Sequence record: MN850651.1
Length of the DNA stretch: 64,000 nt
Strand: one strand, 5' to 3'
Source: Escherichia phage moskry
Shown: positions 33,482 to 43,236 of the stretch, one piece after another
How positions within the stretch are numbered: the stretch's first letter is position 1
Layout of the letters: every line of letters begins with the position of its first letter
Made by a program: the position numbers and the translations under genes
The notes under the pieces: model-generated
Told to the model about the DNA's origin: nothing
Seen by the model: the letters and a program-made list of their open reading frames with translations, nothing else
Databases searched by the model: none

Positions 33482-34030
33482 TTAACGAGCCCATTTAATG
33501 ATTTCTGTAATCAAATAATTACGTTCGCTTGCATTAAATCCTATAACTTTGTTAGCACCATCATGATTAAGTAATTGATACGTTTGGATTTTGTTATGAA
33601 TTGCAAACTCTTCAAAATATGAAATGACTGTATTAAAACCGAATGAAGACAAAGTAATAAGGTCGTCTTCAAAACTTTCAGTCATTTCGTTACGTGTTAA
33701 AATAATTGTGAACACATCATGGTTTTGGCAAAGACGAACATAATCCTGTTCATAAACATCAAGAACCGAGTCCGCATCTTGTCGAATACGTCCATAAACC
33801 CAGTTACTAATATATCCACGGTCTAACAGATAAATCTTAGTAGGGTCTAAATAATTCAACATCGTTTCGAAACAGCCGACTTCATTTCGAGACTTAACAT
33901 CGAAACGCCCATCAACTGTTCGTTTAGGGAAATCAATCTTTACATATCTTTCACTAATTTCCATTATGTCATTAATGAAAGTTGTTTTACCAGCATTATC
34001 CGGCCCGTCTACTAAAATAATTTTAGCCAT
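33482..34030 (-). CDS. P-loop kinase (nucleotide- or sugar-kinase-like), function unknown
   Basis: 182 aa; Walker A ..ILVDGPDNAGKTTF.. near the N-terminus, ..YLLDRGY.. downstream; not present at this position in T4. Confidence 0.5.
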   Translation of the reverse strand: MAKIILVDGPDNAGKTTFINDIMEISERYVKIDFPKRTVDGRFDVKSRNEVGCFETMLNYLDPTKIYLLDRGYISNWVYGRIRQDADSVLDVYEQDYVRLCQNHDVFTIILTRNEMTESFEDDLITLSSFGFNTVISYFEEFAIHNKIQTYQLLNHDGANKVIGFNASERNYLITEIIKWAR

Positions 34031-34031
34031 T

Positions 34032-34931
34032 TTATTCCTCGATTACGACATCTTCGTATTTAGGTATATTATACGGTGAAGAAATTAAAGCATTAAAGTA
34101 GATGAACTCACCAAGACCTGGATGGAATACTTCTTCAGGATTTTCGAAATATTGAATCTTCGGACGTCCTTTAAGAATTTGATAGTACTCAGTTTTAGTT
34201 GGATTAAAAATTCGAATCAGCGCTTCTTCAGGATACTTATTTCTGTCGAAGCTATTATTTGGATCGGTTATATAAAGCGGTTGACCTAATTGAATTGCGC
34301 ATTCAACCACTTGTTCAAAACGATAACACGGGTCACTAATTCGAAATGGATGAAAAATACCATCTAGATGAATAGGAGCCAAATCACCTACAAGACGCTG
34401 CATGATGGAAGGACGTATAACTTTCTGAGTTACGATAATCTTATTACCATCTGCACCTGCGTTAACCAGCACTTCTTTTTGACGTTCATTCAACACAGTA
34501 GTTTGAAGTGAACTATTAACTGACAACATATCGGTTTTTAAGAATTCGTCAATATAAAAACGTGGTTTATTAGGGTCTGCCGTGATATTGAAATTGAATT
34601 CTACATCAAAAGCGCCGTCATAACCAGTGATATCTGTTATTAGAAAATCACAATCATAATAAGCAATTAATGAATCAACCACAAATTCATTTTCAGACCA
34701 GAAATATTTACGAGTGTTATACGCGTTATCTTTATACCATAATGGAACAAACTTAAATTCCGGGAAAAGACGTTCACATTCTTTAATATCAGATGCATTA
34801 CGTGGATATGTAATCACATCACCTGGATTAGCACGGTGCAAATGAAGTTGGAAGTTGCCATCCTTAAGGATAGCATACTGTCCAGTTTCATAAGACCGCA
34901 TACTCAAAATAGGTACGCGGAAAATAGCCAT
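34032..34931 (-). CDS. hypothetical protein (299 aa) occupying the T4 beta-glucosyltransferase position
   Basis: ORF track; stop/start coupled to the kinase and hydroxymethylase genes; no motif I can assign with confidence. Confidence 0.5.
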   Translation of the reverse strand: MAIFRVPILSMRSYETGQYAILKDGNFQLHLHRANPGDVITYPRNASDIKECERLFPEFKFVPLWYKDNAYNTRKYFWSENEFVVDSLIAYYDCDFLITDITGYDGAFDVEFNFNITADPNKPRFYIDEFLKTDMLSVNSSLQTTVLNERQKEVLVNAGADGNKIIVTQKVIRPSIMQRLVGDLAPIHLDGIFHPFRISDPCYRFEQVVECAIQLGQPLYITDPNNSFDRNKYPEEALIRIFNPTKTEYYQILKGRPKIQYFENPEEVFHPGLGEFIYFNALISSPYNIPKYEDVVIEE

Positions 34932-35647
34932 TAGTCAAGAAATCCTTTAACATAATCAAAATCACGTTCAAACACATGGGCACTTACCATGGTATGAGTA
35001 TAATCACCAACTTCTACACCACATTCGTTAGCGATATAATGAAGTAATTTTCCTTGGAGATAAAAATCCAACTGCATAACAACAGCACAGTTCTGAGAAC
35101 GCATATGACAGTGGGTATAAAGCTTACCATCACGAATATAATAAGTCACTGAGTCAGTACATGGATATTCAAGTGTTTCGTCCGAATCAAGCAAAGCCTG
35201 ATCAGAACTTTCTAGAATTTGGAACACAACTCTTCGAGAGTTAGGTTTCTCTTTAAGTTCTTTTAGAAGAGCCGGTAATTGGGCCGCAATGCGAGGACCG
35301 TAGAAAGTGTTGAAGTTTGCAGGCAAAGCGTCTGATTTAGGTTTAGAAATAAATTTAGCGACATTAGGATATGCCTTAAACGCTTCTTCTGCATCAGTAC
35401 CACCAGAAATCATAAACTTCCAGAAGTCTTCGGCATATTCATAAGAGATGCGGTTAATACGTGGGTCGGTCATTTTGAATGATGATGGATTGTCAACAAC
35501 TACTGTCATGGACCCGATTTCATTACAACGTCCAATACGAGAATTAGTTACGAATTCGGGGTTTTCTAAAATTTCACGATTGACTGCTTTAAATGCGGTT
35601 TGAAAATCTGCGGCTTTGATATATTTCATTGTGTTATGTTTTCCCAT
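34931..35647 (-). CDS. 42: thymidylate-synthase-fold dNMP hydroxymethylase (gene-42-like, probably dCMP-specific)
   Basis: 238 aa; ..LEYPCTDSVTYYIRDGKLYTHCHMRSQNCAVVMQLDFY.. aligns with the TS/dCMP-HMase catalytic Cys segment (P-C..Y.(I/V)RD(G/K)K..(Q/N)..RS.D) with Asp at the base-specificity position. Confidence 0.65.
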   Translation of the reverse strand: MGKHNTMKYIKAADFQTAFKAVNREILENPEFVTNSRIGRCNEIGSMTVVVDNPSSFKMTDPRINRISYEYAEDFWKFMISGGTDAEEAFKAYPNVAKFISKPKSDALPANFNTFYGPRIAAQLPALLKELKEKPNSRRVVFQILESSDQALLDSDETLEYPCTDSVTYYIRDGKLYTHCHMRSQNCAVVMQLDFYLQGKLLHYIANECGVEVGDYTHTMVSAHVFERDFDYVKGFLD

Positions 35648-35689
35648 GTTTACCTCAATACAATTTATTATATACTCAATTCGTAAAGC

Positions 35690-35929
35690 TTATTTGAATT
35701 TCTTAGCAATGTTGATATAACGTAAAGCTTCAGAATCTATACTTCCAAGAACACTATGAAGGAATGCATCAGCGTAGTATTCTAGTTGAACAGGTTCTTT
35801 AATCGCTTTAGCCGCTTTAGTTTCAAACAGGCCCATAAGGGCCTTTTTAAGAATTTGTTCGTTGCTATTAATTTTTATGGTCAAAATCTCTTCATTAAGT
35901 TGGTGGTTAAAAGTTTTTCTAGAAATCAT
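35690..35929 (-). CDS. hypothetical protein (79 aa)
   Basis: ORF track; overlaps the upstream gene by 4 nt. Confidence 0.4.
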   Translation of the reverse strand: MISRKTFNHQLNEEILTIKINSNEQILKKALMGLFETKAAKAIKEPVQLEYYADAFLHSVLGSIDSEALRYINIAKKFK

Positions 35930-37104
35930 TCCGGGTACCTCAAAGCGTCGTCAGAGTTAGTTATATCAATAATAGATATAGAATTTTCTGATAACCCATT
36001 TTTAGATAACTGGCGTTTATAATATCTTTCACAATATGTACACGTCGTCCCGCAGATTTCATTAGCACAATCGAAATCTGGATGTCTGAACCACCTTTTT
36101 TCTAAAAAGCCGTCTAACAAAGAGGTTTCAATATTTACCGTATGTGAAAACTCGGTCTCATTTTCAAGAGTGAAAATGGTCTCTAAAGGCTTCCACAATT
36201 CCAACAAATTACCTTCAAACTTTTCAGAAGCATAAGCTTCAAGAACTTTCAAAATGTAGTCGGTGCTACCTGTACGTCCCGAAACTTTAAATTGAGTGAT
36301 ACCAATATCGTTATAAAGTTTCAAATCTTGGGGACGAACAAAACGAGTTCTCAACCAGTTAAATGGGTCTGTATCACGAGCTTTAATACAGTGCTGCATA
36401 GGATATCCGTTTAAGGATTTAGCATCATCAGCCGTAACATCAGTACTATGGAAAATATAGCAAGAGTCACGATAGCTACAATGTGTTGTATACCCTTTAC
36501 CAGCATTAGAACAGAACTCATTTACAAGAACTTCAAATATTATATTGTTCTTATTGCAAAACTCTGCTGCACGCTTCAGGAAAGAAACTGAACGGTTCTT
36601 ATGAATTCCACAGCAGACCTTTTTGATATTATATTGGTCATGCAAGTATTTGATTTGAGTTACAGCATCGACATGTAGAATTGTTGAAACTTCAATCTCA
36701 ATGTCTTTATTGACTTCACGAACAATTTCCATAACAACAGGGTTAGCGATAGTAATACGCCATACGCCTATTGACCAAAGATACTGAACATAATCCTGAA
36801 TAGCTTTCTTCTTCCACTCAACTAGTTCTCTTTTTGAACCAGGATTTATCGTGTTGAGTGTATAGTTAAAGCAAATACCTAATTCGTTACAACGTTTAAC
36901 GTAGTCTTCTAACATCTTTTTGTCAACGTCAGGAAGCCTAAAATCAGGTCTGGCTGCTACAAAAGCCATTTCTCTTGTAGAGCCGTATACTTCGTTTATC
37001 AAGCTATTAGGATAAGTTTTATTGAGCTCTACGATTTTATCAAGAAGAGCTAAATCAAAATTCGTTCCGATTTTAAAAGTATTCATTTTTTTTTTGCATC
37101 TCAC
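35926..37104 (-). CDS. Cys-rich protein of unknown function (392 aa); candidate metal-dependent enzyme/transferase
   Basis: ORF track; Cys clusters (..EFCSNAGKGYTTHCSYRDSCY.. and C-terminal ..CANEICGTTCTYC..); part of the sugar module. Confidence 0.5.
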   Translation of the reverse strand: MRCKKKMNTFKIGTNFDLALLDKIVELNKTYPNSLINEVYGSTREMAFVAARPDFRLPDVDKKMLEDYVKRCNELGICFNYTLNTINPGSKRELVEWKKKAIQDYVQYLWSIGVWRITIANPVVMEIVREVNKDIEIEVSTILHVDAVTQIKYLHDQYNIKKVCCGIHKNRSVSFLKRAAEFCNKNNIIFEVLVNEFCSNAGKGYTTHCSYRDSCYIFHSTDVTADDAKSLNGYPMQHCIKARDTDPFNWLRTRFVRPQDLKLYNDIGITQFKVSGRTGSTDYILKVLEAYASEKFEGNLLELWKPLETIFTLENETEFSHTVNIETSLLDGFLEKRWFRHPDFDCANEICGTTCTYCERYYKRQLSKNGLSENSISIIDITNSDDALRYPE

Positions 37105-37145
37105 GTTAATTGATGCGATGGTTTTTGCAGGTCTTACTTAAATTA

Positions 37146-37547
37146 TTATAGATTAGGTTTATATGATTTAAATGTTTCGAATTCGCCTTTATTCATAAGA
37201 GCTTTGAATTCGTCAGGACGCATAGCTTTGTCGTCGATAATCCAATCATATACTGGTTTATGTGTTAGCAAATTATGGTACTTCAAGCCAATGTTTGCTA
37301 AGTTCTGAATCAGACTTGGGAGAATGTCAATTGCTATACGACCAGGACCTACTGACTTCATACCGCGAGCAGTGTAAAGCGTTATGGTATGCCCTGCATC
37401 ATACAGGGCATTAATGGCAGACACCATTTCGACGTCTGGTTTGAAGTTCACGTAATCACGATTGTTATTCCACTCTGTTATACAATCATCGACATCAAAA
37501 CAAAGATTAAGCATGTTTTCTACACGGTGCATTAGATTCGTTCCCAT
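37146..37547 (-). CDS. HAD-superfamily phosphatase (small, cap-less)
   Basis: 133 aa; motif I ..LCFDVDDCIT.., motif II ..TLYTARG.., motif IV ..WIIDDK.. Confidence 0.55.
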   Translation of the reverse strand: MGTNLMHRVENMLNLCFDVDDCITEWNNNRDYVNFKPDVEMVSAINALYDAGHTITLYTARGMKSVGPGRIAIDILPSLIQNLANIGLKYHNLLTHKPVYDWIIDDKAMRPDEFKALMNKGEFETFKSYKPNL

Positions 37548-39217
37548 TGATGAGTGATATCGCCACCAATTGGGCGATAAGAAACACCAGTTTCTTTATC
37601 AGTTAGTACCCATTTACCAGGATTTTTTGTAATCAGAGTAGCCGTTACAGGTTCTGCTACGTCATAACTAATAGAGCCGTCTTGAAGTACACGGCCCATG
37701 TTACGTAATTGCTTAGTCAGAAGTTCCATACCTTTATAATATGCAGCTACCGCTTTAAGTGGATTATTCTTGAAATAACCACCTAATGCAATCCAGATAA
37801 TTGCCACTGCCAAATGATGATACTCGTTAAACGAACTCATCTTTCCATATTTGTAAACTAATGGATTGATGTTAATAGTCACATTACAAGTTGTTTCATC
37901 AATAGTAAACTGTCCCCAGGTCGGATTAGCGTTGAATTCATCATAACCTGAAACAGCATAAAGCACTTTAGCTTCATCGTACAATTTTGGCCCGTAAATC
38001 TTGGTTTCCCCAAAATATCCACGAGGGTCGATAAACTTGACTTCGCCGTTATCAGTAATCATAGTATTACTGAAGTTCGGGTCACCATGAATAACAGAGT
38101 ACTGTCCCTGAGAACGGTTATGATAACGAATAAGGTGTTCTAAAGCTTGTTTCAGCATTGGCTTCAGACGCCCAATCTTAGTGTAGTTCACATGGGTGAT
38201 TTTACCAAATGAATCAATCAATGGTTGAATGCTTTCACAACGATCAATAACTTTCGTATAGAATTCTTTAGTGAAATCACGGCGAACAGTTTCAGGACTT
38301 ACAAAATAAGTGTCTGTGCTGAATTTCAGTGCATCTAAAATTGCATCAACAATTTGTGGACGAGCAAGACTTGATTTGGATTTAATATATTCAAATGCCG
38401 GCTTACCTTTAATGCGTTCCATTTCAAAGTTATTTTCATTAACAGAAACTAACTGAGGAACTGAATCTGATTTCACTTTAAGATACCATGAAATCTCATC
38501 TTTCTGAAGAGCTCGACCCTGTTCGGTTAATGCGAATTTAGTTACAGTTTCTTCACCAATTTCAACTGCATTAAAACTACGATTAAGTTCACGAACTTCA
38601 TGAGCTTTTTCAAGTTTAGGCATATCACCTAAATCAATTAGATTCATAAGCTCTGATTTATTGAATGCGCTGCCGTAAAGGAATTCTACGAAATCGCGTC
38701 CTTTGCAGTATTCATGAATTTCCTCATCGGTAGAACCCATATAGAATTCCCAGTCTTTGAACTGATAAATTCCTACAACATTACCACCTGTTGAACCTAC
38801 GTTAGTGATATTTTCACCGTCGAAATTATATCGACATTCGTCACCCTTAACATAGATTGCGTTAACATTCCAAGACCATGAACCAAAATCGGGAATAATA
38901 TCACACCAGTTAACAATTACATTATGGCCGTCTAAATCTTTGTGTAATTTAGCAAGAGCATAAGCAGAACCGTACGCTTCATCAACTGTACGAATAGTCA
39001 CATTGAACCCTTCTTGCTCACAATAAGCTCGAACAGTTTCAGCAAATTTTGAATGAACTACTACAATAATTTCATCTGCGCCAAGGTCAGAATAAATTGT
39101 ATACAAATTGCTCAGAATAGTGTCTTGTTTATAGTTAACAAGCACCTTAGGAATATGATGCGTTATTGGATATAAACGAGTCGCCAGTCCAGCACCAAGA
39201 ATAACAGCTTTTTTCAT
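37532..39217 (-). CDS. bifunctional sugar-1-phosphate nucleotidyltransferase (N) / APH-choline-kinase-like anomeric sugar kinase (C)
   Basis: 561 aa; N-terminus MKKAVILGAGLATRLYPITHHIPKVLV (G-x-G-x-R-L-x-P-x-T..PK-x-L nucleotidyltransferase signature); C-terminal ..VIHGDPNFSNTMIT..VKFIDPRGYFG.. (H-G-D-x-x-x-N and I-D-x-x kinase motifs). Confidence 0.7.
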   Translation of the reverse strand: MKKAVILGAGLATRLYPITHHIPKVLVNYKQDTILSNLYTIYSDLGADEIIVVVHSKFAETVRAYCEQEGFNVTIRTVDEAYGSAYALAKLHKDLDGHNVIVNWCDIIPDFGSWSWNVNAIYVKGDECRYNFDGENITNVGSTGGNVVGIYQFKDWEFYMGSTDEEIHEYCKGRDFVEFLYGSAFNKSELMNLIDLGDMPKLEKAHEVRELNRSFNAVEIGEETVTKFALTEQGRALQKDEISWYLKVKSDSVPQLVSVNENNFEMERIKGKPAFEYIKSKSSLARPQIVDAILDALKFSTDTYFVSPETVRRDFTKEFYTKVIDRCESIQPLIDSFGKITHVNYTKIGRLKPMLKQALEHLIRYHNRSQGQYSVIHGDPNFSNTMITDNGEVKFIDPRGYFGETKIYGPKLYDEAKVLYAVSGYDEFNANPTWGQFTIDETTCNVTININPLVYKYGKMSSFNEYHHLAVAIIWIALGGYFKNNPLKAVAAYYKGMELLTKQLRNMGRVLQDGSISYDVAEPVTATLITKNPGKWVLTDKETGVSYRPIGGDITHQWERI

Positions 39218-39245
39218 GTTGAAGTCCTCATTGGTAAGTAGGAGT

Positions 39246-39270
39246 ATTGTACACTATTCTAGTTAAAGCA
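39246..39270 (-). promoter_or_regulatory. candidate MotA-dependent middle promoter (MotA box TGCTTTA, 12 nt, -10 TACAAT) upstream of the nucleotidyltransferase/kinase gene
   Basis: Read on - strand: GAATGCTTTAAC..TACAAT about 30 nt upstream of the ATG. Confidence 0.4.
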
Positions 39271-39398
39271 TTCATACTTTGCTTGTAGTCCAATCATAAT
39301 CCATCCAATTACAAGTGTTGGAATCATTACTGGAGCCGTTAAGCTCCAGTAGATAGTCATGACAAGCATCAATAGTAAAAGTCCTATTGTTATTGCTT

Positions 39399-40034
39399 TC
39401 ATTGTTCGCCTCGTAACATGGCACCTAGTGCACCGCCTGGATGGAACTTAAGGAAGTCATTAGAGGTAAATCCACGCTCAGACGAAAGGTTGATAGCGAA
39501 CGTATCGATAAGCGCTAACAACAATGTAGTGGACATAGTCGGAGCTAAAGAGTTCTCGTCAACTTCTACCGCGATACCGGTACAGAACGTATAATCAAAA
39601 AGAGCTTCGTATTCTTGTGGAATGTCAGGGTTACAATGCAACAGAATCTGTTTGACGTTCGGGCGAATCATTTTAAGATGCTTAGCCACGCCTATCATTT
39701 CTTCAGTTTTACCAGAACGACTAATATGAATCAACACATCATTAGGCGCAATGAATCCTGCATCACCGTGAGAATAATGCCCAGTGTTCAAGTACATACT
39801 AGGGATACCGAGTGAAGCAAATGTCTCAGAAGCTTTAGTTGCAATATTAGCATTCTTACCAACACCTGTAATAATTACTCGGCTTTCATAATTACTAAGT
39901 CCCGGGCGTCGAAGAGTTTCTAGAATAGCATTATAACGAGCAGGGTTTTGACTAATTACTTTGGCCATAGCGGCCAAAGAAGAAGCTTGTTTTATGATTG
40001 CGTCAATAGCGATAGTAATAGGAGTAGTTTTCAT
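39399..40034 (-). CDS. SIS-domain sugar-phosphate isomerase (arabinose-5-phosphate isomerase-like, no CBS domains)
   Basis: 211 aa; ..ITGVGKNANIATKASETFASLGIPS.., ..HISRSGKTEE.. typical SIS (KpsF/GutQ/KdsD-type) motifs. Confidence 0.65.
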   Translation of the reverse strand: MKTTPITIAIDAIIKQASSLAAMAKVISQNPARYNAILETLRRPGLSNYESRVIITGVGKNANIATKASETFASLGIPSMYLNTGHYSHGDAGFIAPNDVLIHISRSGKTEEMIGVAKHLKMIRPNVKQILLHCNPDIPQEYEALFDYTFCTGIAVEVDENSLAPTMSTTLLLALIDTFAINLSSERGFTSNDFLKFHPGGALGAMLRGEQ

Positions 40035-40074
40035 ATTTCTCTCATTTAATTAGTTTACCGTCCATGTCATTATA

Positions 40075-42786
40075 TCAAAAATCGAACATATCGAACAGAG
40101 ATGCTTTCTTCTCGTAATCGAGTTTCGCCGCTGATGTGAATCCTTCAAGTGGTTTAATAAATGTCTTCTCAAGGAGAACCGTGTAGTCCATCCAATGAAG
40201 TACATCATCTTTGATTAAATCAGTGATTTCAGTACCAGAAGGCCATGCGATACATTTATCACCGAATGGGTTTCCTTCACGTAAAGGCAGAACATATACT
40301 TTTTCACCTTCTACAACTTGTGGTGCATCGATATTACCTTTGATAGCCCGGTTATACGTCAGAATTCCACGAATATGGAACGGGCATTTAGGACCAGGGA
40401 ATCCACCTACATCATATTTAGCAATGTTATTCGCAGAAGATACCGACGCGATGCTAATATAATTCAATTGACGGAATTCTTTTTCAAACTCTTTAAAATA
40501 TTCTTGTAATGATTCTTCACCTTCTTGAAGCATACGACGAATACATTCCTTAAGAGCTTTCTGTACTGCTTTAGGGGTTGAAGATTTCTGTGTTTCGAGA
40601 CCCATGATTTTAAGCTTAGGTTCAGCGTATCTAGTTCCTTCCATATCCCACACGTTTAATGCATAACGTTTCTTACCAGTCCAAAATCCACCAATACCTT
40701 TAGAACCAAGCGGAGGTCCAGCGATAGCTTCTCGGTCCATGAACATCAAATGTTGCTTATTATTCATGTATTCGCACATTTCACGGAAACCTCTATCAAT
40801 AGCAGGTTCCATACGTTCACGAGCGAACTTATCTAAGAAGTCTACCCAATGGTTAGTATCGCGGAATTTAGATTCACCAACCTTATCAATAATTTTATCT
40901 GCAGATACGTAAATGGAGTCTGTATCACCATATAGAACGAAAGCTTCACCTTCTGTACCACAAACTTCATTCAGATATTCATTAACTTTACGTTCAATCC
41001 ACTGTAAAGCCATTTGACCAAATGTTGTGATTGCAGTAGCATTACGCAAATCGTAATAACGGAACCAAACGTTGCCAAGTGCACCATAAAGTGAGTTGAT
41101 AAGCAATTTACGGTTAATTTGGGCAGTCATACCTGCAACTTCAGTACGTTGAGCTCTAAACAACATTTCATTAAGAGATTTAGCAGACAACTTTTTAATC
41201 TTTTCTTTAATCTCATCGCTAAAGTCGAAACGATAATCAACATCTAATGGTTCGTCAACAGAAAGATTAGGATTATGCAACGCCTCTTTAATTATTTCAC
41301 CATTACGTTGAGCCGCAAGCATATAACCTTTATGTTCTTTACGTTGATTAAAGACTTTAGTGATTTCAGTTGGAACTACACCATCACGGTCTTTATAATA
41401 CATCATGCCGTTAGGAGAGCAACTGTACACATCAGAAGGACGTTCAGCAACAGCGTTAATATAATCATGCAATGGAGCTACTTTAAACGTTCCTGCTATT
41501 GTTTCTGGGCTAATATTCACTTGGCGAATAATACTTGGATACAGAGATGTAAGGTCGAAACTCATTACATATTTGTATCGATTTGGAATAGGTTCCTTAA
41601 CAAAAGCGCCAGGATAAGGTTGAACTGGATGCGAACGACCTTGTGGAATCACCTTGTTCTGCTCTTTAAGGCTATTGAAAATAATAGCGTCCCAAGTTTT
41701 AATTGGACTGAACACAGATTGAATCTGAATTTTAGCATAATACCCCATGTCCAAACTCAAGTTAATGAACTGGCGTTTAGCATCAATTTGCAATACACGA
41801 TACACGTCGATAATGTTATAAGAAATATATCGTTGGTGATTGCTTTCACGAAGCTTAGAAATAGGGCCGTCATATTTCAGTTTACCAACGTTCAATTCAA
41901 ATTCTGAAATGTAATCCAGAGAATATGACGGTTGGTTCGTGAAAGAGAACTTTTTGTAAAGGTCAATGTAATCAAGAACAGAGATACCGAACAATGTAAT
42001 GATTTCACGAGAACCATACATGTTTTCGATAACTTTAACACGAGTTTTACGATGTGGTGATAAACGTTTCGCAGTAGATTCGCCAAAAATATTCTTGATT
42101 CGGTTATACACATATGGAATATCAAATGACTCAACGTTCCATCCAGTCAAAATGACAGGAGTTTTCTGTTGCCAGAAGTTGAGATATTCCATCAATAATT
42201 CTTTTTCATTATCAAACGGCATATAAACGATTTTGTCGATAATTTCGGATGGAACTTCATCACCACCTTGTTCTTGAAGCTTAGCTGCAATTTCGATAGA
42301 CCATTCTTCTACATTACCATATGGAGAATTCAATAGATCAAATACGTAGAACCTGTCGTCAATTGAGTCATAATGGGTGATGGCATCAATTGGATGTTTT
42401 GCTTGTGACGGCTCAGGGAACCCATCCGGAGATGTTACTTCGATGTCGAAGTTAGCCACACGAATTTTTGTATGGTCGTATTTGATTTCATAGTTATAAG
42501 TGTCAGACAAATACGCCAATTTGAAATCGTCCATGCCAAGTGCTTCAAGTCCGATATCTTCCATGCGTTTAATCCATTGGGAGGCATCACGCATATTAGC
42601 GAACAACTTACGAGTACACGGCTTACCGTAGATATCGAAATATTTCGTAGCCTGACTTTCTGGACAATGAGCAAACAGTGATGGTTTATATTCTACTTCA
42701 CGAGTACGTTCACGGCCATTAGAATCGATGTAACGTTCAAAAATTGAATCACCAATCTGTTCAACCGTTAAGTAAAATTCTTTCAT
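40075..42786 (-). CDS. 43: DNA polymerase gp43 (family B, RB69-type)
   Basis: 903 aa; N-terminus MKEFYLTVEQIGDSIFERYIDSNGRERTREVEYKPSLFAHCPE.. and exo/pol motifs (..FDIEV.., ..YGDTDS..) match the RB69 polymerase sequence as I remember it. Confidence 0.97.
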   Translation of the reverse strand: MKEFYLTVEQIGDSIFERYIDSNGRERTREVEYKPSLFAHCPESQATKYFDIYGKPCTRKLFANMRDASQWIKRMEDIGLEALGMDDFKLAYLSDTYNYEIKYDHTKIRVANFDIEVTSPDGFPEPSQAKHPIDAITHYDSIDDRFYVFDLLNSPYGNVEEWSIEIAAKLQEQGGDEVPSEIIDKIVYMPFDNEKELLMEYLNFWQQKTPVILTGWNVESFDIPYVYNRIKNIFGESTAKRLSPHRKTRVKVIENMYGSREIITLFGISVLDYIDLYKKFSFTNQPSYSLDYISEFELNVGKLKYDGPISKLRESNHQRYISYNIIDVYRVLQIDAKRQFINLSLDMGYYAKIQIQSVFSPIKTWDAIIFNSLKEQNKVIPQGRSHPVQPYPGAFVKEPIPNRYKYVMSFDLTSLYPSIIRQVNISPETIAGTFKVAPLHDYINAVAERPSDVYSCSPNGMMYYKDRDGVVPTEITKVFNQRKEHKGYMLAAQRNGEIIKEALHNPNLSVDEPLDVDYRFDFSDEIKEKIKKLSAKSLNEMLFRAQRTEVAGMTAQINRKLLINSLYGALGNVWFRYYDLRNATAITTFGQMALQWIERKVNEYLNEVCGTEGEAFVLYGDTDSIYVSADKIIDKVGESKFRDTNHWVDFLDKFARERMEPAIDRGFREMCEYMNNKQHLMFMDREAIAGPPLGSKGIGGFWTGKKRYALNVWDMEGTRYAEPKLKIMGLETQKSSTPKAVQKALKECIRRMLQEGEESLQEYFKEFEKEFRQLNYISIASVSSANNIAKYDVGGFPGPKCPFHIRGILTYNRAIKGNIDAPQVVEGEKVYVLPLREGNPFGDKCIAWPSGTEITDLIKDDVLHWMDYTVLLEKTFIKPLEGFTSAAKLDYEKKASLFDMFDF

Positions 42787-42845
42787 TTAATTTCCTTTAG
42801 ACGAGTTATTGTCTTTTGTTTGTTGATGAACTTATTATACTCCAA

Positions 42846-42863
42846 ATGGGACCGAAGTCCCAT
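42846..42863 (-). terminator. hairpin AUGGGAC-CGAA-GUCCCAU between regA and gene 43 (terminator/RNA-stability element); TATAAT box follows at about 42834-42839
   Basis: Perfect stem read directly; flanks are not strongly U-rich. Confidence 0.4.
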
Positions 42864-42867
42864 TGCT

Positions 42868-43236
42868 TTAATTACCAATTGTATATTTTGCTTTCAAAGT
42901 CCAGTCATCTTTCTGTTTAAAAGAGATAACACGGAAGTTATTAGTTAGGCCAAACAGATCTTCACGAGCAGAGTCTTCAATAACAATCAATCCCCAGTCT
43001 TCAAGCAACTGGGCAATCGAATCACGTCGTTGGTAGTCTTCACCATCAATATCAACTTGACGCCCGTCCATACGCAACATTTCTTTAAAGTGGACGATGT
43101 AATATTTACCTTGCTTTTGGAGGATATGACAGGACTGATAAAGAACTTTATCCTTGTTATTAGCGATGCCCATACGGGTCAGAGTCTCTTTGACTTTAAG
43201 AAAATCTTCGGGGTTCTTCAATTTAATTTCGATCAT
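42868..43236 (-). CDS. regA: translational repressor RegA
   Basis: 122 aa from internal Met MIEIKLKNPEDFLKVKETLTRMGIANNKDKVLYQSCHILQK.. matching T4 RegA; track ORF has a 3-codon extension. Confidence 0.9.
   Translation of the reverse strand: MIEIKLKNPEDFLKVKETLTRMGIANNKDKVLYQSCHILQKQGKYYIVHFKEMLRMDGRQVDIDGEDYQRRDSIAQLLEDWGLIVIEDSAREDLFGLTNNFRVISFKQKDDWTLKAKYTIGN

Follow-up and report, generated by a model that had tools for sequence, protein, structure and literature searches.

[quoted passage not shown]

Results

The window, by which we mean the whole stretch of 64,000 nucleotides of Escherichia phage moskry (MN850651.1) that was analysed, belongs to an RB69-like Mosigvirus of the T4 family. 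Across positions 35000-43000 its identity is 97.5% with Escherichia phage RB69 and 99.1% with phage ECO26.1 3-1, and at least 80% of this interval is matched by each of 150 phage records. Neither tRNA genes nor Rfam matches were found in the 64-kb window. The gene considered here occupies 39399..40034 of the minus strand in the ORF listing, has its ATG start at the 40034 end, and encodes a 211-aa SIS protein that we will argue is an arabinose-5-phosphate isomerase (API). DNA polymerase gene 43 (40075..42786, minus strand) is encoded on the same strand, and the SIS gene begins 40 nt downstream of its stop codon in the direction of transcription; the placement of the SIS gene upstream of the polymerase in the preliminary description therefore holds only in plus-strand coordinates. 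The API gene is probably co-transcribed with gene 43. Scans for promoters and terminators performed no better than on shuffled sequence (36 promoter-like sites against 37.3 expected, and 7 terminator-like sites against 6.1), and we draw nothing from them about transcription except that no minus-strand terminator-like site was detected between the two genes.

SIS is the sole Pfam domain of the protein (PF01380, residues 51-181, E 1.7e-10, 41.2 bits against a cut-off of 25), which places it in the SIS superfamily, and the motifs GVGKNANIATK and HISRSGKTEE lie at residues 57-67 and 103-112. Pfam detected no CBS domain within the 211 residues, and no separate CBS gene follows, the 181-nt spacer behind the SIS gene holding only a 36-aa hydrophobic ORF. 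The motifs, the length, and the missing CBS tandem are thus as the preliminary description had reported them. The NCBIfam models for KpsF/GutQ and KdsD match through their SIS half alone (model positions 2-153 of 268 and 47-202 of 328), and because the phage protein lacks the CBS half, its scores against the two-domain API models that we compared (TIGR00393, NF008141, and NF008581) all fall below the curated cut-offs, at 112.7 against 203.7 bits for KpsF/GutQ TIGR00393, 107 against 505 for KdsD, and 79.9 against 481 for GutQ. Every remaining NCBIfam SIS family scores at most 26.6 bits, compared with 112.7 for KpsF/GutQ.

That this feature lies far beyond chance is clear from the 191 homologues returned by a database search at E<=1e-5 and from an end-to-end match to PHROG 5670, 'arabinose 5-phosphate isomerase' (E 2.3e-116). 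The protein is 99% identical in amino acid sequence to RB69 gp55/ORF055c, with few substitutions, the same 211-aa length, and the same slot between gene 43 and gp52:53; the sister phage RB69 carries this very gene. The RefSeq entry RB69p055 (NP_861745.1) reads 'arabinose 5-phosphate isomerase', and an older note on it reads 'similar to bacterial polysialic acid capsular expression protein GutQ'. The API role has accordingly been described before, both in this standard annotation and in the literature since 2018: the conversion of D-ribulose-5-phosphate (Ru5P) to D-arabinose-5-phosphate (Ara5P or A5P) for NDP-arabinose synthesis was first proposed by Thomas et al. 2018 (PMC6024577), gp55 was again proposed for this step in a purely computational treatment by Lee et al. 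2026 (PMC13326640), and a further 2026 paper speaks of a 'predicted isomerase' of the Mosigvirus cluster (PMC13390438). We found no direct enzymatic assay of any phage API in the literature covered.

The SIS gene is followed in the direction of transcription by further minus-strand genes, which together with it lie at 33482..40034. The hydrophobic 36-aa ORF behind it (39259..39369, minus strand; MLVMTIYWSLTAPVMIPTLVIGWIMIGLQAKYECFN) is a homologue of RB69 gp54 (PHROG 3610, RB69p054 annotation). Next comes the homologue of RB69 gp52:53 (37532..39217, minus strand), a 561-aa AfhE-like protein taken, by analogy to AfhE of phage HY126, to be a bifunctional sugar kinase/NDP-sugar pyrophosphorylase; it has a Pfam NTP_transferase match at residues 3-99, weak kinase-family matches at 308-409, and NCBIfam matches to sugar-1-phosphate nucleotidylyltransferases. 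The AfhF-like homologue of RB69 gp51 (37146..37547, minus strand) is a HAD-type sugar-bisphosphate phosphatase that matches the NCBIfam capsule biosynthesis phosphatase TIGR01689 (4.3e-13), its role being assigned as in PMC13326640. These two genes are the neighbouring sugar-activation genes of the preliminary description, and they are real.

Further along the minus strand are a Peptidase-U32-family protein homologous to RB69 gp50 (35926..37104; Pfam Peptidase_U32, 7.7e-11), a 79-aa gp49 homologue assigned to PHROG 8601 that has no Pfam match (35690..35929), and a thymidylate-synthase (ThyA) homologue (34931..35647; Pfam Thymidylat_synt, 2.3e-15) corresponding to RB69 gp48, an experimentally confirmed 5-hydroxy-dCMP (5hodCMP) synthase (PMC13326640). 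The last two minus-strand genes encode a putative DNA arabinosyltransferase 1 of 299 aa, the homologue of gp46:47 (34032..34931; assigned from Table 1 of PMC13326640), and a thymidylate-kinase-like nucleotide kinase of 182 aa, the homologue of gp45 (33482..34030; RB69p045 annotation, with structural matches given in Table 1 of PMC13326640). With an AfhE-like gene, an AfhF-like HAD gene, a ThyA homologue, and a DNA glycosyltransferase gene co-located, the locus has the composition of an arabinosyl-5-hydroxycytosine module. The homologues of gp52:53 and gp46:47 are each one intact ORF in the window and are split in the RB69 reference record; the splits have been explained as sequencing error (Thomas et al. 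2018, PMC6024577; Lee et al. 2026, PMC13326640), and the intact ORFs lend this explanation independent support.

Among the entries of the PDB, HMMER matched only four by sequence: the Bacteroides fragilis API (3ETN, 5.5e-25), E. coli CFT073 c3406 (5UQI, 6.4e-23; also deposited as 5VHU), the SIS domain of E. coli KdsD (2XHZ, 6.5e-19), and a Listeria protein (3FXA, 2.6e-13). A profile built from 28 phage homologues returned the same entries at 6.5e-38 for 5UQI, 9e-37 for 3ETN, 3e-26 for 2XHZ, and 1.1e-21 for 3FXA. When an AlphaFold monomer model built with an alignment (pLDDT 94.7, pTM 0.90; a single-sequence model with pLDDT 37.8 was discarded) was compared with the PDB by Foldseek, 2XHZ came top, followed by 3ETN and 5UQI, the latter a structure with A5P bound, at about 1e-13, and then by 3FXA. 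About 4-5 orders of magnitude separated the APIs and 3FXA from the NanR, RccR, MurR, and RpiR regulators (E of at least 4e-8). The phosphoheptose isomerase GmhA, considered as a candidate best match by profile and by structure, scored clearly below the APIs.

The best matches in both sequence and fold are thus characterised APIs, which bears out the proposal in the preliminary description of a KdsD/GutQ-like isomerase; a regulator or other non-isomerase, the structural best match that it had named as refuting this proposal, was not seen, since the APIs come first and SIS regulators and GmhA rank lower. The protein also has the single-domain API form, being SIS-only, falling within the range of about 190-220 aa, and adopting in its model the API fold with the N-terminal helices and the C-terminal His-bearing helix. 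Enzymes of this form are homotetramers in which neighbouring subunits together build the active site. Taken together, the sequence matches and the model support the prediction that the gene encodes a single-domain, CBS-less D-arabinose-5-phosphate isomerase, with catalysis presumed from conservation of the active-site positions.

In E. coli KdsD, the catalytic residues are reportedly Lys59, His88, Glu111, Glu152, and His193, an assignment attributed to Gourlay in 2010 and Sommaruga in 2009. The HMMER alignment to 2XHZ, a K59A mutant in which the substitution is visible as GMGASG, pairs K60, H89, E112, and E157 of the phage protein with K59, H88, E111, and E152 of KdsD, and alignments via 5UQI and 3ETN pair H198 with KdsD H193. 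H89 and H198 also correspond to His79 and His186 of the B. fragilis enzyme once the 19-residue tag of 3ETN is subtracted, residues which we take to be those proposed as catalytic in that API. K60, H89, E112, E157, and H198 are invariant in all 28 phage homologues, which are 39-80% identical to the query, and equivalents of the five positions are present in 144-146 of 146 relatives. It is this conservation that we observe, and from it we infer that the five residues would be catalytic.

HMMER, run exhaustively against 1.84 billion representatives, returned 5488 relatives at E<=1e-3 and 14 at E<=1e-30. These 14 constitute a discrete phage clade, beyond which there is a sharp drop to cellular proteins of about 40% identity. 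The first five cellular relatives are SIS-only proteins of 193-243 aa; among 133 cellular relatives, 31 are at most 250 aa long and 81 are at least 300 aa long, the longer ones (e.g. about 320 aa) carrying CBS domains. APIs without CBS domains are thus well established in nature, and the B. fragilis API has served as the positive control that complements an E. coli delta-kdsD delta-gutQ strain (PMC11301363). The phage clade has fixed several residues that are rare in the cellular relatives, namely N61 (Ser in 109 of 133), E70 (Ala), and N83 (His), and further H86 (Glu or Asp in cellular APIs), H103, and R106, together with a 4-residue insertion near P125. Judging by their position beside the catalytic motifs, the fixed substitutions N61, N83, H86, H103, and R106 could alter specificity or regulation.

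Synteny was followed in three distant API homologues of 46-55% identity on long metagenomic contigs (L003, L005, and L007). In each, the SIS gene is followed directly by an NTP-transferase/APH gene, with stop and start codons that overlap or nearly abut, and the encoded proteins (510-552 aa) are 32-38% identical to the AfhE-like protein of the window. DNA polymerase is absent from beside the SIS gene at all three loci, and because the pair is kept away from the polymerase in these distant phages, the conserved functional partner of the API is the activating enzyme and its adjacency to gene 43 is incidental. At the L007 locus the genes for the API, AfhE-like protein, HAD phosphatase (61% identical to that of the window), ThyA homologue, and glycosyltransferase are contiguous between gp2 and the nrd genes. 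A fusion of an AfhE-like protein to an SIS domain has been described in Butyrivibrio (Thomas et al. 2018, PMC6024577). Among our own matches there was no such fusion: a 463-aa candidate with a C-terminal SIS domain (P0237) has no similarity to the AfhE-like protein, and the other long homologues are KdsD-type or unrelated fusions.

The phage collection contains 269 records with an API and 368 with an AfhE-like protein. About 100 records, or roughly one quarter, have the AfhE-like gene without an API, and these are mainly Klebsiella, Vibrio, and Proteus phages together with about 40 Escherichia phage records. The API step is therefore not obligatory in phages with an AfhE-like gene. At the one such locus that we inspected, the 43-uvsX slot of the Dhakavirus VR5, there are genes for an AfhE-like protein, a HAD protein, a kinase, a ThyA homologue, and a glycosyltransferase, and imm and a gene for a 166-aa protein take the place of the API and U32 genes. 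The 166-aa protein, considered as a non-homologous isomerase, gave no meaningful Pfam match. Homologues of the putative arabinosyltransferase 1 in the L007 and VR5 modules are 41-66% identical.

Discussion

In regard to the function of this gene, the reading that we favour, with a probability of roughly 85%, is that the API draws on host Ru5P to provide A5P for UDP-D-arabinofuranose, and ultimately for arabinosylation of DNA 5-hydroxycytosine, with the phage copy serving as a flux booster. The API would take D-ribulose-5-phosphate from the host pentose-phosphate pathway and convert it to D-arabinose-5-phosphate by a KdsD-type mechanism, with the chemistry carried out by Lys60, His89, Glu112, Glu157, and His198. 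In the next step C1 would receive a phosphate from the kinase domain of the 561-aa AfhE-like protein, after which the HAD phosphatase would take off the 5-phosphate, and the nucleotidyltransferase domain of the AfhE-like protein would produce UDP-D-arabinofuranose, from which phage glycosyltransferases would move arabinofuranose onto DNA 5-hydroxycytosine and so block host nucleases. We have taken the steps downstream of A5P from published work on phages HY126, RB69, and DLP3. In the parts of PMC13326640 drawn on here, 1-phosphorylation, 5-dephosphorylation, and uridylylation are assigned to gp52:53 and gp51 by analogy to HY126 AfhE and AfhF, and the biochemistry of HY126 is summarised as starting from Ara5P.

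The end product has been characterised in RB69, whose DNA contains alpha/beta-D-arabinofuranosyl-5-hydroxycytosine as determined by LC-MS, NMR, and GC-MS, with the absolute configuration established by GC-MS (Lee et al. 2026, PMC13326640). The D configuration of this arabinose is what an API delivers. Because the modification has been shown for RB69, to which the window is 97.5% identical, we infer by analogy that the virion DNA of the window phage would also carry arabinosylated 5-hydroxycytosine. UDP-D-arabinofuranose is not a metabolite known in Enterobacteriaceae (PMC13326640), and RB69-like phages would for this reason make their own; the API gene would then provide the first step of a nucleotide-sugar pathway encoded by the phage itself. 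The preliminary description had proposed that the isomerase supplies A5P to the adjacent sugar-activating enzymes rather than to LPS or Kdo synthesis. That supply role is supported by synteny, by conservation of the catalytic positions, and by the D-arabinofuranose on RB69 DNA, and what the proposal missed was the end use in DNA hypermodification.

Since E. coli itself already possesses the APIs KdsD and GutQ (PMC11301363), and about one quarter of the records with an AfhE-like gene have no API, the phage enzyme is best seen as an accessory flux booster that raises A5P supply and not as an indispensable component. Rough support for this view comes from an estimate of sugar demand. A genome of 167.6 kb at 37% G+C contains about 62,000 cytosines, and with 1-2 arabinoses per cytosine and a burst of 100-200, we estimate the A5P need per burst at 0.6-2.5 x 10^7 per latent period. 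The Kdo need of an E. coli cell, estimated from textbook LPS numbers, is a few million residues per generation. Arabinose demand would thus stand several-fold above the per-generation Kdo demand of the host.

Alternatively, the protein may be an aldose-ketose isomerase of another phosphosugar, such as G6P/F6P or another pentose or hexose phosphate, that feeds a different sugar to the activating enzymes. Fold similarity alone would leave the substrate unfixed, as the related SIS-only Listeria monocytogenes protein lmof2365_0531 (3FXA) is a glucose-6-phosphate isomerase rather than an API. However, 3FXA has Thr at the position of Lys60 and Thr at that of Asp91 and is without the A-P-T motif, all of these API-type residues being retained in the phage protein; moreover, the three real APIs score better than 3FXA in all of the searches, and the sugar on RB69 DNA is D-arabinose (PMC13326640). 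We therefore regard another substrate as improbable. Still less probable, in our judgment, is that the protein makes A5P for Kdo, destined for host LPS or a KpsF-like capsule during infection instead of for DNA modification. It is true that KpsF, GutQ, and KdsD are the best family matches, that the early note on RB69 cites the GutQ capsular expression protein, and that the neighbouring HAD protein matches a capsule-biosynthesis phosphatase family. Nevertheless, the module contains no homologue of KdsA, KdsB, or KdsC, the partner in every lineage examined is a kinase/nucleotidyltransferase accompanied by a 5hodCMP synthase and a glycosyltransferase, and new LPS would be of no evident use to a lytic phage whose latent period lasts about half an hour.

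The SIS fold is also that of the effector domains of RpiR, MurR, and NanR, and a non-catalytic phosphosugar sensor or regulator of this kind is the explanation to which we give the least credence of all. The protein has only 211 residues and no HTH domain according to Pfam, its scores against NCBIfam regulators do not exceed 26.6 bits, its Foldseek E-values against such regulators are about five orders of magnitude worse than against APIs, and the equivalents of the catalytic positions are invariant across the phage clade.

Compared with known enzymes, the phage protein is like the B. fragilis API and E. coli c3406 (5UQI/5VHU) by every testable criterion, with an identity of only 28-30%. Unlike those enzymes, whose product goes to Kdo or capsule, it would have its product directed to a nucleotide sugar for DNA, and it belongs to a separate clade marked by the fixed residues and insertion described above. 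KdsD, GutQ, and KpsF of E. coli are its best-scoring curated families, with matching catalytic positions and with the KdsD SIS domain as the top Foldseek match, but the CBS pair is theirs alone and their downstream pathway is different; lacking the CBS pair and scoring below the cut-offs, the phage protein is not a member of these two-domain equivalogs.

The module as a whole invites comparison with that of T4, which has a base-modifying ThyA homologue and a DNA glycosyltransferase in the same uvsX-43 slot and likewise produces sugar-coated, nuclease-resistant cytosine. The glucosyl-hydroxymethylcytosine system of T4 (gene 42 with the alpha- and beta-glucosyltransferases) draws its UDP-glucose from the host and has no genes for a sugar-nucleotide pathway. 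In T4 the slot from uvsX to gene 43 is filled by segA, beta-gt, gene 42, imm, and imm.1, the last two occupying the place of the API, AfhE-like, HAD, and U32 genes of RB69-like phages. From the contents of this slot, the RB69-type module appears to be a positional replacement of the T4 modification genes with a nucleotide-sugar pathway added. Arabinosylated 5-hydroxycytosine decides which restriction, CRISPR, and type IV defences are evaded or triggered by phages that are candidates for therapy.

Feedback inhibition by CMP-Kdo controls single-domain bacterial APIs. Because the substitutions specific to the phage clade border the catalytic Lys and His and the CBS domains are absent, we tentatively raise the rather unlikely possibility that the phage API clade is a deregulated variant insensitive to CMP-Kdo or, alternatively, one tuned for hand-off to the AfhE-like kinase. 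If the API were deregulated, the pentose-phosphate pool could be drained into arabinose far beyond the limit set by host regulation.

A further observation concerns the U32-family protein gp50. In Winklervirus, Tegunavirus, Marfavirus, and Mosugukvirus, a gene for a type II chorismate mutase lies between the gp50 and 5hodCMP synthase genes (Pfam CM_2, 44.6 bits against a cut-off of 27), and homologues of this phage chorismate mutase are present in 47 phage records. Chorismate mutase yields prephenate, which has been published as the source of oxygen in hydroxylations that proceed without O2 and depend on the U32 proteins UbiU and UbiV. The pairing of a U32 gene with chorismate mutase in these related phages suggests, by analogy, that gp50 may act as a cytosine hydroxylase that gives an O2-independent route to 5-hydroxycytosine, complementing gp48, which takes its hydroxyl oxygen from O2 in a flavin-dependent reaction (Lee et al., PMC13326640). 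Lee et al. label gp50 only as a 'sugar or heterocycle reductase' and make no mention of U32, prephenate, or chorismate (PMC13326640). No chorismate mutase profile match was found anywhere in the window, and gp49 of the window, which sits at the position taken by chorismate mutase in those related phages and was considered as a diverged form of it, was rejected (BLASTP E 0.14, hhalign probability 0.2%). At the sequence level gp50 has no match in the PDB. Its identity is 80% or higher in each of the 221 phage records that carry it, including the Klebsiella, Proteus, and Shewanella phages in which the AfhE-like protein has diverged to 43-54%, and 13 Cys residues are invariant in it across five genera, among them a C-terminal CX4CX3CX2C cluster.

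Discussion

A homologue of RB69 gp50, a U32 'peptidase', is encoded at 35926..37104 (minus strand) within the arabinosyl-5-hydroxycytosine module. It is at least 80% identical throughout the phage records that have gp50 (221 of 221) and contains 13 invariant cysteines; related loci are L010:5004-6514, L011:1103-2740, L012:1329-2731 and L013:1153-2728. In four other phage genera, a gene for a type II chorismate mutase follows the gp50 homologue and directly precedes the gene for 5hodCMP synthase, the ThyA homologue. Prephenate-dependent, O2-independent hydroxylation is linked to the U32 proteins UbiU/V, RlhA and TrhP. Because of this link, gp50 may, by analogy, represent an anaerobic route to 5-hydroxycytosine. 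This idea is absent from the study of RB69 arabinosylated 5-hydroxycytosine DNA by Lee et al. 2026 (PMC13326640). In moskry, a 79-aa homologue of gp49 (35690..35929, minus strand; PHROG 8601) sits precisely where related phages encode the chorismate mutase, and no similarity to that enzyme or to a Pfam family could be detected. The gp49 homologue may be either a non-homologous replacement of that enzyme or a very diverged form of it.

In the phage clade of arabinose-5-phosphate isomerases (APIs), to which the protein encoded at 39399..40034 (minus strand) belongs, N61, E70, N83, H86, H103 and R106 are fixed, all of them rare in 133 cellular relatives, from which a 4-residue insertion at about residue 125 also distinguishes the clade; several of these clade-specific residues flank Lys60 and His89, two of the predicted catalytic residues. 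Across the phage collection, the gene for the AfhE-like sugar kinase/pyrophosphorylase occurs in 368 records, whereas API occurs in only 269. One phage carrying the AfhE-like gene, the Dhakavirus VR5 (Escherichia phage; NC_028881.1, 15993-35663), encodes AfhE-like, HAD, kinase, ThyA-homologue and glycosyltransferase proteins in the slot between genes 43 and uvsX, and neither an API nor a U32 gene was found in that locus. Phages that have the AfhE-like gene without API presumably either depend on host KdsD/GutQ or use a different sugar.

The AfhE-like gene (37532..39217) and a second gene at 34032..34931, both on the minus strand, are single intact ORFs of 561 and 299 aa that are split in the RB69 reference record as ORF052c/053c and ORF046c/047c, respectively; the intact ORFs independently support the published claim that these splits are sequencing errors. 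The protein encoded at 37146..37547 (minus strand) belongs to a family labeled 'phosphoheptose isomerase' in RefSeq and PHROG 1238. Instead of a SIS domain, it has a match (4.3e-13) to TIGR01689, a family of HAD-type capsule-biosynthesis phosphatases, which agrees with an AfhF phosphatase role; the label looks like a propagated mis-annotation. Between the API and AfhE-like genes lies a conserved, strongly hydrophobic 36-aa ORF homologous to gp54 (39259..39369, minus strand; PHROG 3610; MLVMTIYWSLTAPVMIPTLVIGWIMIGLQAKYECFN), which looks like a single transmembrane helix.

On two distant metagenomic phage contigs, the AfhE-like member of an API/AfhE-like gene pair is followed, approximately 1-2.5 kb further downstream, by a gene for an Fpg/Nei-family DNA glycosylase with Fapy_DNA_glyco and H2TH domains (L003:14078-14929 and L005:12092-12952). 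This proximity is curious because glycosylases of this type classically act on 5-hydroxycytosine. A T4-type glucosyltransferase domain is encoded on L003 as well.
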